Assembly: GCF_000027125.1 (NCBI RefSeq)
Contig: NC_017626.1
DNA: 64,000 nucleotides
DNA from: Escherichia coli 042
Lineage (GTDB): Bacteria > Pseudomonadota > Gammaproteobacteria > Enterobacterales > Enterobacteriaceae
Strand: one strand, 5' to 3'
A program made the translations under genes and the position numbers. The notes below the pieces were generated by a model. That model searched no databases. It was not told the DNA's origin and worked only from the letters and a program-made list of their open reading frames with translations. This document shows, one piece after another, positions 9,136-11,758 of this stretch (positions within the stretch are counted from its first letter, which is position 1; every line of letters starts with the position of its first letter).

Positions 9136-9546
9136 ATGAAGTGGCAACAACGTGTTCGTGTCGCAACTGGTCTAAGTTGCTGGCAGATTATGTTGCATTT
9201 ACTGGTAGTGGCGCTGCTGGTGGTGGGCTGGATGAGTAAGACTCTGGTTCACGTCGGCGTGGGATTATGCGCACTGTATTGTGTCACGGTAGTGATGATG
9301 CTGGTGTTTCAGCGCCACCCCGAGCAACGCTGGCGTGAGGTGGCAGACGTGCTGGAAGAGCTGACTACGACCTGGTATTTTGGCGCAGCGCTGATTGTGC
9401 TGTGGCTGTTGTCCCGTGTACTGGAAAACAACTTTTTGCTGGCAATTGCAGGGCTGGCAATCCTTGCCGGCCCGGCGGTAGTGTCTTTGCTGGCGAAAGA
9501 TAAGAAGTTACATCACCTTACGTCTAAACATCGCGTACGCCGCTGA
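9136..9546 (+). CDS. ybhQ: Inner membrane protein YbhQ
   Basis: 136 aa hydrophobic ORF with GGAG RBS. Confidence 0.88.
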
Positions 9547-10614
9547 CCCTGTCGTGGCCGTTATCACCAGTAGCGGCCACAAACTATTCCACACAATATC
9601 CAGACTCGCATCCTTCAAATAAATCTGCTTGGTAATGTCCGTAAAGTGGCGAATAGGGTTAATCCACGTCAGGTTTTGCAGCCATACTGGCATGTTTTCC
9701 ACCGGCGAAACGTAACCGGAAAGGAGAATGGCGGGCATCATAAAAACAAACACGCCGATAAACGCCTGCTGTTGTGTCGAGCAGAGTGATGAAATCAACA
9801 GACCGAATCCCACCAGCGATAAACCGTAAATCACCATCGTAAAGTAGAACAGCGCCAGCGATCCGGCGAAGGGGATTTGATACGCCCAGATACCAATCGC
9901 CAGCACAATGGTGGCCTGGAAGGTGGCGACAATTAATGCCGGTACGGCCTTGCCGATGAATATCTGCCAGGTTGTGAGCGGCGAAACCAGTAACTGATCG
10001 AGCGTACCTTGTTCACGTTCGCGGGCAACAGAAAGTGAAGTGACGATCATCACGCCAATAGTGGTGATCATGGCGATCAGCGACGGCACCACAAACCATT
10101 TGTAGTCGAGATTCGGGTTATACCAGTTGCGTACCACCAGCTCGCTGTTGTTGGGTTTCGGTTTTCCTTCCAGCAGCTCCTGCTGATAATTTTTGACGAT
10201 CTGTTGCAGGTAGTTGGCGGCAATTTGCGCACTGTTGGAGTTACGCCCGTCGAGGATCAACTGCAACGGCGCGGTCTGGAAGGTATCCAGTTTGCGCGAG
10301 AAGTCAGCCGGGAAACGCACCAGGAGTAACGCCTTTTGTGTGTCGATGGTCGGGCGGATCTCCTGCGGGCTTTTCAGCAGCAGCACATGGGTAAAGGCGC
10401 TGGCGCGGGCAAAACGTTGAGTAAGTTCTACCGAGTGCTCGCCGTTATCTTCATCGTAGATGGCGATGGTGGCGTTGGTCACTTCCAGCGTGGCGGCGAA
10501 CGGGAACAGGATCACCTGAATCAGCACGGGTAAAATCAGAATTGCGCGGGTTTGCGGTTCGCGCAGCAGCGACTGCAACTCTTTGCGGATTAACGTCCAT
10601 AAGCGATGAAACAT
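9508..10614 (-). CDS. ybhR: ABC-2 family transporter permease YbhR
   Basis: 368 aa polytopic membrane protein; last gene of the ybhGFSR operon. Confidence 0.92.
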
Positions 10615-10624
10615 GCTCTTCTCC

Positions 10625-11750
10625 CTAATCCAGCCGACGTTTGGTTTTCAGCCACGTCAGGCCGATAAACATCACCGCCGAAGCGATCAAAAACAGCACG
10701 TTCACCACCAGTACCACCGGAATATTCCCGGCGAGGAACAGGCTTTGCAGGGTGCTGACGAAATAACGTGCGGGAATAATGTACGTCACCGCGCGGATCA
10801 CCGCGGGCATACTGTCTATCTGAAATATAAAGCCGGAAAGCATAATCGACGGCAGAAAAGCCGCGTTCAGGGCCACCTGAGCGGCGTTGAACTGGTTGCG
10901 GGTAATCGTGGAAATCAGCAGCCCCATCCCCAGGGTACTGAGTAAAAACAGGCTGGAGATAAAAAACAGAATCAGCAGCGACCCGCGATACGGCACGCCG
11001 AGAATAAACACCGACACCAGCATACACAGCAACATCGCCAGCATCCCGAGAAAGTAATAAGGGATCAGCTTACACAGCAGCAGCTCCGTGCGGGTAATCT
11101 CCGTAGAGAGCAAAGCCTCCATGGTGCCGCGTTCCCATTCTCGCGCCACCACCAGCGAGGTGAGAATCGCGCCGATGACCGTCATGATAATGGTCACCGC
11201 ACCGGGGATAATAAAGTGCTGGCTTATCGCCGCCGGGTTAAACCAGTAGCGGGTTTGTACATCAATAAGCGGTTCAAAAGTCTGCCCGTTATCCTCCGCG
11301 CGCTGCATTTGCCAGATCTGCCAGATCCCTTCGACATACCCCTGCACAAAGTTAGCGGTATTCGGCTCACTGCCGTCGGTGATCACCTGAATCGGTGCGG
11401 TGGCGTTGGCGCGCTCCATCTGTTCGGCGAAATCCACCGGAATAACCACCAGACCGCGAATTTTCCCCGCCTGCATTTTGGCGATCAGTTCCTGACGGTT
11501 ATCGCTGATGGTGGCGTCGATGTAGGGCGAACCGGTCATGGTGTGGGTGAAATCCAGCGCCGCTTCGCTACGCTGTTCCAGTAAAATCCCGACGCGCAGC
11601 TTGCTGGAGTCGAGGTTAATGCCGTATCCAAAAATAAACAGCAGTAGCAGTGGGATCACTACCGCAATCAGCCAGCTACTCGGATCGCGAACGATCTGCC
11701 GTGTCTCTTTGACGCACAGCGCCCGCACGCGACGCCAGGACAGGATCGGA

Positions 11751-11758
<8 letters not shown>
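10625..11758 (-). CDS. ybhS: ABC-2 family transporter permease YbhS
   Basis: 377 aa, paralogous to YbhR; start overlaps the ybhF stop. Confidence 0.92.

Follow-up and report, generated by a model that had tools for sequence, protein, structure and literature searches.

Convergent (tail-to-tail) overlapping gene pairs in prokaryotes were reportedly described by Rogozin et al. in 2002, and Dar and Sorek are said to have described, in 2018, the trimming of Rho-dependent transcripts from the 3' end back to a stable stem-loop. In E. coli 58 convergent overlaps have been counted, and among convergent overlaps of at least 5 nt the phase 123:321 accounts for 33% (Lillo and Krakauer 2007, PMC2174442). 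The convergent orientation is the only one in which long overlaps can be real, and most of the possibly real convergent overlaps of more than 60 bp are 'conserved only in very close species' (Palleja et al. 2008, PMC2478687). ExcludonFinder lists ybhQ-ybhR among 165 convergent excludons of MG1655, present in at least 50% of 58 transcriptomes (2025, PMC12288877 Table 1).

The overlap of ybhQ with ybhR in E. coli 042, which lies in a 64,000-nt stretch of contig NC_017626.1 (the window, whose positions are used throughout), is annotated and published, and it is already known as an ordinary member of this class, mechanistically as well as in its arrangement. The overall best explanation, to which we assign a probability of roughly 0.85, is that the pair represents a genuine, anciently fixed convergent overlap of two real genes in which both protein tails are selected. 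A preliminary description of the window had placed the end of ybhQ (+) at 9546 and that of ybhR (-) at 9508, an overlap of 39 bp, in agreement with the open reading frame list and with RefSeq (Table 1); the last 13 codons of each gene, which it took to be shared, comprise 12 sense codons and the stop codon in each case. On the plus strand the shared segment is TTACATCACCTTACGTCTAAACATCGCGTACGCCGCTGA, in which the end of YbhQ is read forward and the end of YbhR in the reverse complement. RefSeq annotates the same geometry in the closest complete genome (ybhQ 3137-3547, ybhR 3509-4615), and no in-frame stop is present upstream of the annotated one in either ybhQ or ybhR.

Table 1. Positions of genes, shared segment, RNA structure and transcript ends at the ybhQ-ybhR junction
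Feature	Position	Strand	Description	Basis
ybhQ CDS	9136..9546	+	136 aa; stop TGA 9544-9546	ORF list, Pfam, RefSeq
ybhR CDS	9508..10614	-	368 aa; stop TAA 9510-9508	ORF list, Pfam, RefSeq
Shared ybhQ/ybhR segment	9508..9546	both	39 bp	read from sequence
Distal half of overlap	9526..9546	both	YbhQ K-H-R-(V/I)-R-(R/H)-stop versus YbhR S-(A/V)-A-Y-A-M-F; both tightly held	
GC-rich hairpin, ybhQ transcript	9554..9580	+	GUGGCCGUUAU-CACCA-GUAGCGGCCAC; 11 pairs, 5-nt loop	
ybhQ mRNA primary 3' end	9585..9587	+	MG1655 825080 (825079-825081) = window 9586	published maps
ybhQ read-through zone	9581..9688	+	antisense to ybhR	published Rho region and base composition
ybhR 3' untranslated extension	9435..9507	-	antisense to ybhQ codons 101-124; C/G ratio 1.42	

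Both partners are real coding genes by their Pfam matches and homologues, and together they form what defines a convergent overlapping pair, two opposite-strand CDSs with common 3' ends. YbhQ is a small inner-membrane protein of the YbhQ family PF11076 (Pfam E 2e-73, with profile positions 1-132 of 132 matched), of which 817 homologues were found, and its length of 136 aa is kept in Salmonella, Citrobacter, Leclercia and Enterobacter. YbhR is an ABC-2 type permease (Pfam ABC2_membrane_3, E 4e-51), encoded by the final gene of the minus-strand run ybhG(hlyD)-ybhF-ybhS-ybhR and constituting the distal permease of the ybhGFSR ABC-transporter operon; among PDB structures none is of YbhR itself and the only matches are distant ABCG proteins over residues 110-325, so that the tail falls outside the matched part. 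Other junctions of this neighborhood are ordinary, with same-strand overlaps of 4 bp between clsB and ybhP (8242-8245) and of 8 bp between ybhF and ybhS (11751-11758), and a same-strand gap of 10 bp between ybhS and ybhR (10614-10625). The mechanical open reading frame of ybhF begins at a GTG that precedes the annotated start by 5 codons.

Within the overlap the codons of the two genes are exactly antiparallel, positions 1, 2 and 3 of ybhQ standing opposite positions 3, 2 and 1 of ybhR, and each codon is the reverse complement of one codon of the partner. The ybhQ stop TGA is read on the other strand as the TCA of YbhR Ser357, and the ybhR stop TAA as the TTA of YbhQ Leu125. In this phase opposite-strand stops arise only from TTA, CTA and TCA codons; 4 of the 136 ybhQ codons and 12 of the 368 in ybhR read as such stops (about 3%), and because they are so rare, abutting convergent reading frames are expected to intrude on each other by tens of codons. 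Each frame runs, codon-aligned, into the antisense of its neighbor as far as the reverse complement of a Leu or Ser codon. The existence of the overlap is not beyond chance, a mutual intrusion of 12 codons being not unusual in itself; chance does not explain how strictly the overlap is conserved. The arrangement also limits the proteins, in that YbhQ residue 125 can be only Leu or Ser, its codon being the mirror of the ybhR stop, and YbhR residue 357 is Ser, or Leu where the ybhQ stop is TAG.

Conservation was followed in a scan with one genome per species, comprising 80 loci besides the window and drawn from Escherichia, Salmonella, Citrobacter, Enterobacter, Leclercia, Lelliottia, Kluyvera, Cedecea, Siccibacter, Mangrovibacter, Trabulsiella, Pluralibacter and other genera. 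The overlap measures exactly 39 bp in 70 of these 80 other Enterobacteriaceae species, down to identities of 59% for YbhQ and 80% for YbhR, and in the same 70 both stops lie at homologous positions, by which the pair passes the orthologue test of Palleja et al. against misannotation. The position of the ybhR stop never varies, though its type does, with TAG in 36 sequences, TGA in 20 and TAA in 15, and YbhQ residue 125 is Leu or Ser to match. A coupled change is likewise seen at the other end of the overlap in Siccibacter colletis and in Enterobacteriaceae bacterium LSJC7, where ybhQ ends in TAG and YbhR accordingly has Leu (CTA) rather than Ser (TCA) at residue 357. Five loci were set aside: in four the junction is kept and the ybhR match is broken further upstream, with single-base deletions visible in two of them, so that these may be either assembly errors or pseudogenes, and in the fifth the junction is interrupted by an assembly gap (NN).

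Premature ends in relatives, which the preliminary description had named as refuting evidence, occur for ybhQ in only 5 of the 80 species (L042, L046, L061, L067 and L077) and for ybhR in none. In these five, which lack the overlap, the tail and length of YbhR are normal, and YbhQ has another tail, non-homologous to the usual one, whose end lies 0-34 nt short of the ybhR stop. By YbhR similarity the five constitute three groups, and since more divergent species still overlap, the non-overlapping state is probably derived, a judgement made from similarity rather than from a tree. Duplication of the shared segment was considered as a route to the non-overlapping state and rejected, in that local alignments of the ybhQ tail with the ybhR tail were no better than those of shuffled sequences (847-1924 of 2000 shuffles scored as high). 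One of the five, L042, lies on a contig that bears the Bacteroidota name Chryseobacterium sp. 18061 and encodes typical enterobacterial ybhQ and ybhR, with a YbhR 98.9% identical to that of 'Citrobacter sp. 18056' (L046); this contig is probably mislabelled or contaminated.

Within E. coli, 5423 of 5426 complete genomes carry the 1.7-kb region spanning window 9000-10700. Of those 5423, 5364 match the 111-bp junction at 99% identity or more, and only 144 reach 99% over the surrounding 1.7 kb, so that the window derives from a minority E. coli lineage at the ybhQ-ybhR locus. Most E. coli genomes are 95-99% identical over the 1.7-kb region, the best match being strain 2012C-4221 at 99.8%, and two of the matches lie on plasmids. 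In E. coli UTAK-1 (NZ_CP157165.1), where the region is 87% identical, ybhQ and ybhP are intact and the annotation gives ybhR, ybhS and ybhF each as a frameshifted pseudogene, which looks like either many indel errors or real decay of the operon.

It is the behavior of silent sites in the shared segment that reveals selection on both proteins. Site entropies were calculated over 71 sequences. The four four-fold sites of ybhQ in the overlap (9510, 9522, 9534 and 9540) all have an entropy of 0.00, against a mean of 1.04 over 70 sites in the gene, and third-position entropy is 0.97 in codons 1-123 versus 0.37 in the overlap. For ybhR the four-fold sites at 9544, 9538 and 9532 have entropies of 0.00, 0.26 and 0.41, against a gene mean of 1.09 over 177 sites where the amino acid is conserved, of which only 15 stand at 0.35 or below, 9544 and 9538 among them; these three positions, silent for YbhR, are the first codon positions of YbhQ Arg133, of Arg135 and of the ybhQ stop (Fisher p about 1e-3).

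Tail alignments and entropies also show that the constraint is asymmetric along the overlap. In the distal half YbhQ K-H-R-(V/I)-R-(R/H) is held opposite YbhR S-A-A-Y-A-M-F, and the ybhR third positions there have entropies of 0.25, 0, 0.47, 0.98, 0.25, 0 and 0, where the mean for ybhR third positions in the 3' portion outside the overlap is 0.95. Free drift is seen in YbhQ residues 126-130, which face the YbhR tail R-R-K-V-M, and the ybhR third positions of that part stand at 1.1-1.8. Because the four-fold sites of each gene are frozen opposite codons of the partner, both protein tails must be selected, and both frames are under purifying selection in the overlap. The claim that the overlap constrains sequence evolution is borne out by these values, and the conservation check of both C-termini across Enterobacteriaceae, also proposed in the preliminary description, finds both tails under selection. 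The YbhR tail consists of the end of the final membrane helix followed by F-R-R-K, and that of YbhQ of the basic K-H-R-V-R-R; as both are translated and selected, the 39 bp evolve under double purifying selection with neither stop movable. Two selected protein tails fully explain the conservation of the 39 bp.

These same observations bear on the suspicion of an annotation artefact, in which one tail is not translated, the true stop or functional end lies upstream, and the overlap is only apparent. Such a reading draws on the variability of YbhQ residues 125-130, on the five of 80 species in which ybhQ ends before ybhR, and on the distant YbhQ proteins, which are shorter, at 128-130 aa, and align only to about residue 123. 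We consider it scarcely credible: there is no upstream in-frame stop to serve as the true end, both stop positions are conserved in 70 species, the Pfam YbhQ profile itself reaches residue 132, and the ybhR four-fold sites opposite YbhQ K131-R136 are frozen in a manner explicable only by selection on the ybhQ frame or on RNA, as are, likewise, the ybhQ four-fold sites opposite YbhR.

The distant YbhQ proteins stand at 33-50% identity. Wherever the context of a distant ybhQ is available, ybhR is not its neighbor. At L085 the order is moaC-moaD-moaE, ybhL, ybhQ, followed by rhlE and a Dus-family gene, and at L086 ybhQ follows moaD-moaE; these outgroup loci are without the ybhN-clsB-ybhP and ybhGFSR-cecR blocks that flank ybhQ in E. 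coli. No antisense YbhR-like tail lies downstream of ybhQ on L083 or L084, metagenomic contigs too short to show neighboring genes, and on the short contig L083 a canonical intrinsic terminator, a hairpin plus T-run, follows ybhQ. As outgroup ybhQ genes occur with no ybhR nearby, it follows that the overlap arose where ybhQ came to abut the ybhGFSR operon.

With no intergenic spacer, the end signals of each transcript must lie within the partner gene. For ybhQ the relevant element is a GC-rich hairpin that starts 8 nt past the ybhQ stop, within ybhR codons 345-354. It folds at -18.5 kcal/mol (z -5.3) on the plus strand versus -14.6 kcal/mol (z -2.0) on the minus strand, and the same structure is drawn at -19.2 kcal/mol in Supplementary Data 3 of PMC10687069. 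Among 63 distinct sequences 95.4% of pair cells are paired on the plus strand versus 89.2% on the minus strand, a modest asymmetry. Support for the hairpin comes mostly from invariance rather than from covariation, which is thin: 2 of the 11 pairs show compensatory changes (G-C to A-U, and C-G to U-A via U-G), in 3 sequences each. All one-sided changes in the stem keep a G-U pair on the plus strand. Entropies of 0.35 or less are found at four of five ybhR four-fold sites of the stem, versus 9 of 168 elsewhere in ybhR (Fisher p 9.5e-5), and the flanking four-fold sites at 9547, 9550 and 9553 and the loop site at 9565 are fully variable (1.4-1.9). Of the five lineages that do not overlap, four retain the hairpin and one has lost it, and two of the four, L042 and L046, also have a separate intergenic hairpin. 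Rfam covariance models gave no match at an E of 1 or less in window 8900-10700.

It could be argued that this palindrome is kept for some other cause, such as a DNA-level inverted repeat bound by a protein (GTGGCCGC-N11-GCGGCCAC), folding of the ybhR mRNA, or codon bias on top of a conserved amino-acid sequence. The predominance of invariance in the stem, the folding of the minus strand, the persistence of the palindrome in lineages where ybhQ ends further upstream, and the fact that CCG, GCG and GCC are common codons are all compatible with such causes. They are nonetheless unlikely, given that stem sites at 0-0.3 are bordered by sites at 1.4-1.9 in the flanks and loop, that the one-sided changes which preserve G-U on the plus strand would be A-C mismatches on the minus strand, and that two studies map a plus-strand 3' end 6 nt downstream. 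The interpretation we prefer is that the hairpin forms or protects the 3' end of the ybhQ mRNA, the protective role being our inference.

The mapped end, at window 9586, lies 6 nt past the hairpin and 40 nt past the ybhQ stop, antisense within ybhR. Term-seq gave 825080 (+) as the primary ybhQ 3' end under two growth conditions (Adams et al. 2021, PMC7815308 Supplementary file 1); the 61-nt sequence printed there is identical to window 9536-9596, and thrL was used to check the layout of the table. An independent analysis (PMC10687069) also has the ybhQ end at 825079-825081, with a longest U run of only 2 and a tail of at most 2-3 U. A Rho termination region is reported at MG1655 825182 (+), roughly window 9688 (score 3.95, p 5e-7; PMC7815308 Supplementary file 2), a position that is approximate, like that of the minus-strand Rho region, both deriving from comparisons of 800-nt windows in bicyclomycin (BCM) experiments. 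The 45 nt after the hairpin hold 14 C and 2 G, and over 120 nt the C/G ratio is 1.3, the C-rich, G-poor composition of a rut-like stretch. Roughly 15-20 nt beyond the ybhQ 3' end, in a C-rich stretch, the four-fold sites of ybhR codons 336-338 (window 9601-9607, minus strand) have low entropies, 0.19 at Ala336 and 0.00 at Leu338.

Being a stable GC-rich stem-loop, with the mapped 3' end 6 nt beyond it, the hairpin might be taken for a canonical Rho-independent (intrinsic) terminator, or even for a bidirectional one serving both genes, and embedded terminators of this kind have been found in 21 of the 58 convergent overlaps of E. coli, 19 with one gene and 2 with both (Lillo and Krakauer, PMC2174442). 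This we find doubtful at ybhQ-ybhR. The 11-bp stem is present and the U-rich tract is absent, the tail after the hairpin being AAACUAUUCC with no U run longer than 2; the consensus terminator scan does not call the hairpin; and a bicyclomycin-sensitive region lies just downstream. Nor is there the combination of hairpin, A-tract and U-tract ending both transcripts that characterizes a bidirectional terminator: flanking A or U tracts are absent, with no A-tract upstream of the hairpin, and on the minus strand the hairpin precedes the ybhR stop by 44 nt, where it cannot terminate ybhR. The most likely origin of the 9586 end is Rho-dependent termination that leaves a stable 3' end; failing that, it would be a weak intrinsic stop. 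Rho would end ybhQ transcription about 100 nt into antisense ybhR, and the RNA would be trimmed back to the hairpin or partly stopped at it.

Two other structures on the plus strand of ybhQ came to notice. A consensus-scan terminator-like match at 9464-9478 was rejected, having support neither from conservation nor from 3'-end maps. At ybhQ codons 5-20 (window 9148-9196) a long imperfect hairpin keeps most of its pairs in more than 90% of 45 distinct sequences, mainly through invariance, and the four-fold sites of codons 7-10 (9156-9165) have entropies of 0-0.30 versus the gene mean of 1.04; an ORF-internal Term-seq 3' end reported by Adams et al. (PMC7815308) at MG1655 824690, window 9196, falls exactly at the base of this hairpin, which could be a premature-termination or processing element.

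For ybhR a Rho termination region is placed at MG1655 824929 (-), roughly window 9435 (score 3.85, p 2e-7; PMC7815308 Supplementary file 2). Published maps hold no discrete ybhR 3' end in 9435..9507, that interval contains no conserved hairpin, and the supplements of the SMRT-Cappable-seq study (PMC6131387) mention neither ybhQ nor ybhR. A second strong hairpin of E. coli, at 9451-9473 on the minus strand, within ybhQ and 35 nt past the ybhR stop, was considered as the ybhR terminator and rejected, the four-fold sites in its stem being fully variable across species (1.2-1.85) and no 3' end being mapped to it. Transcripts of ybhR would pass their stop into antisense ybhQ and be ended by Rho at no discrete mapped position. 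From the 3' end at 9586 and the Rho region near 9435 it follows that the ybhQ and ybhR mRNAs are complementary over roughly 150 nt, about 9435-9586. The mutual antisense transcription that the preliminary description had predicted is thus supported by published data, comprising the ybhQ 3' end inside ybhR, the Rho regions on both strands (PMC7815308) and the excludon listing (PMC12288877).

Whether such complementarity has been selected is a separate matter. Were the pair a true excludon, expression of ybhQ and of ybhGFSR would be mutually exclusive through convergent transcription and the cutting of the ~150-bp duplex by RNase III, and that function would lie behind the conservation of the overlap. 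The overlapping transcripts are documented, the arrangement is conserved across Enterobacteriaceae, and nucleotide-level conservation extends to the hairpin that defines the 3' end of ybhQ, all of which speak for such a function; even so, we judge it improbable. The double protein-coding constraint fully covers the conservation of the 39 bp. The ExcludonFinder criterion is overlapping coverage only (PMC12288877), so that a pair whose CDSs overlap, as these do, is listed automatically. At least three lineages have lost the overlap and kept both genes, outgroup ybhQ exists without ybhR, and the literature searched yielded neither reciprocal-expression nor RNase III data for the pair. In a more specific version the 39-bp overlap and the hairpin would together form a conserved antisense control module, in which the CecR-repressed ybhGFSR efflux operon, once induced, reads through and silences ybhQ by duplex cleavage or polymerase collision, and the reverse. 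If this were true the uncharacterised YbhQ would be functionally tied to the YbhFSR pump, a reading on which we would place little weight. Selection on two protein tails is the explanation that we retain for the overlap.

What the present analysis adds to the published overlap is modest: its family-wide fixation at exactly 39 bp, the double constraint now demonstrated, and a conserved hairpin at a transcript's 3' end that is kept in place at silent sites of the partner gene. The locus provides a clean, well-documented case of a convergent overlap that locks two protein tails together, with little import beyond the locus itself, and it shows how synonymous positions of one gene can preserve a hairpin at the transcript end of the gene opposite. 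There are practical consequences. Deletions or tags at either 3' end alter the partner, a precise ybhQ knockout removes the last 12 codons of ybhR, and synonymous recoding of the ybhR 3' end may disturb the ybhQ mRNA; single-gene knockout phenotypes of ybhQ or ybhR are to be read with the overlap in mind.

The ybhQ 3'-end hairpin lies in the ybhR CDS, as do the embedded intrinsic terminators of Lillo and Krakauer (2007) in their partner genes, but it is without a U-tract and so fails the canonical definition. The parallel with Rho-trimmed 3' ends, known here from the hairpin and the Rho maps, encompasses a hairpin with no U-tract at the mapped end, a bicyclomycin-sensitive region about 100 nt downstream and a C-rich, G-poor stretch; the difference is that the ybhQ hairpin sits inside an opposite-strand CDS and is held at synonymous sites of ybhR. 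Among convergent excludons ybhQ-ybhR is explicitly listed (PMC12288877), and its transcripts overlap by about 150 nt according to the 3'-end and Rho maps, although here the CDSs overlap and not the untranslated regions alone, and the resemblance is known from overlapping transcription, whereas the defining outcome of an excludon is mutually exclusive expression. As in convergent overlap pairs in general, ybhQ and ybhR are two real opposite-strand genes with common 3' ends, one of roughly 58 such pairs in E. coli, in phase 123:321 and with an overlap of 39 bp that is below the 60-bp range where misannotation dominates and an origin most simply envisaged as loss of a spacer or stop followed by extension to the next antisense stop. 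From these pairs ybhQ-ybhR differs in being longer than the modal 4 bp and in being conserved family-wide, and in nothing categorical.
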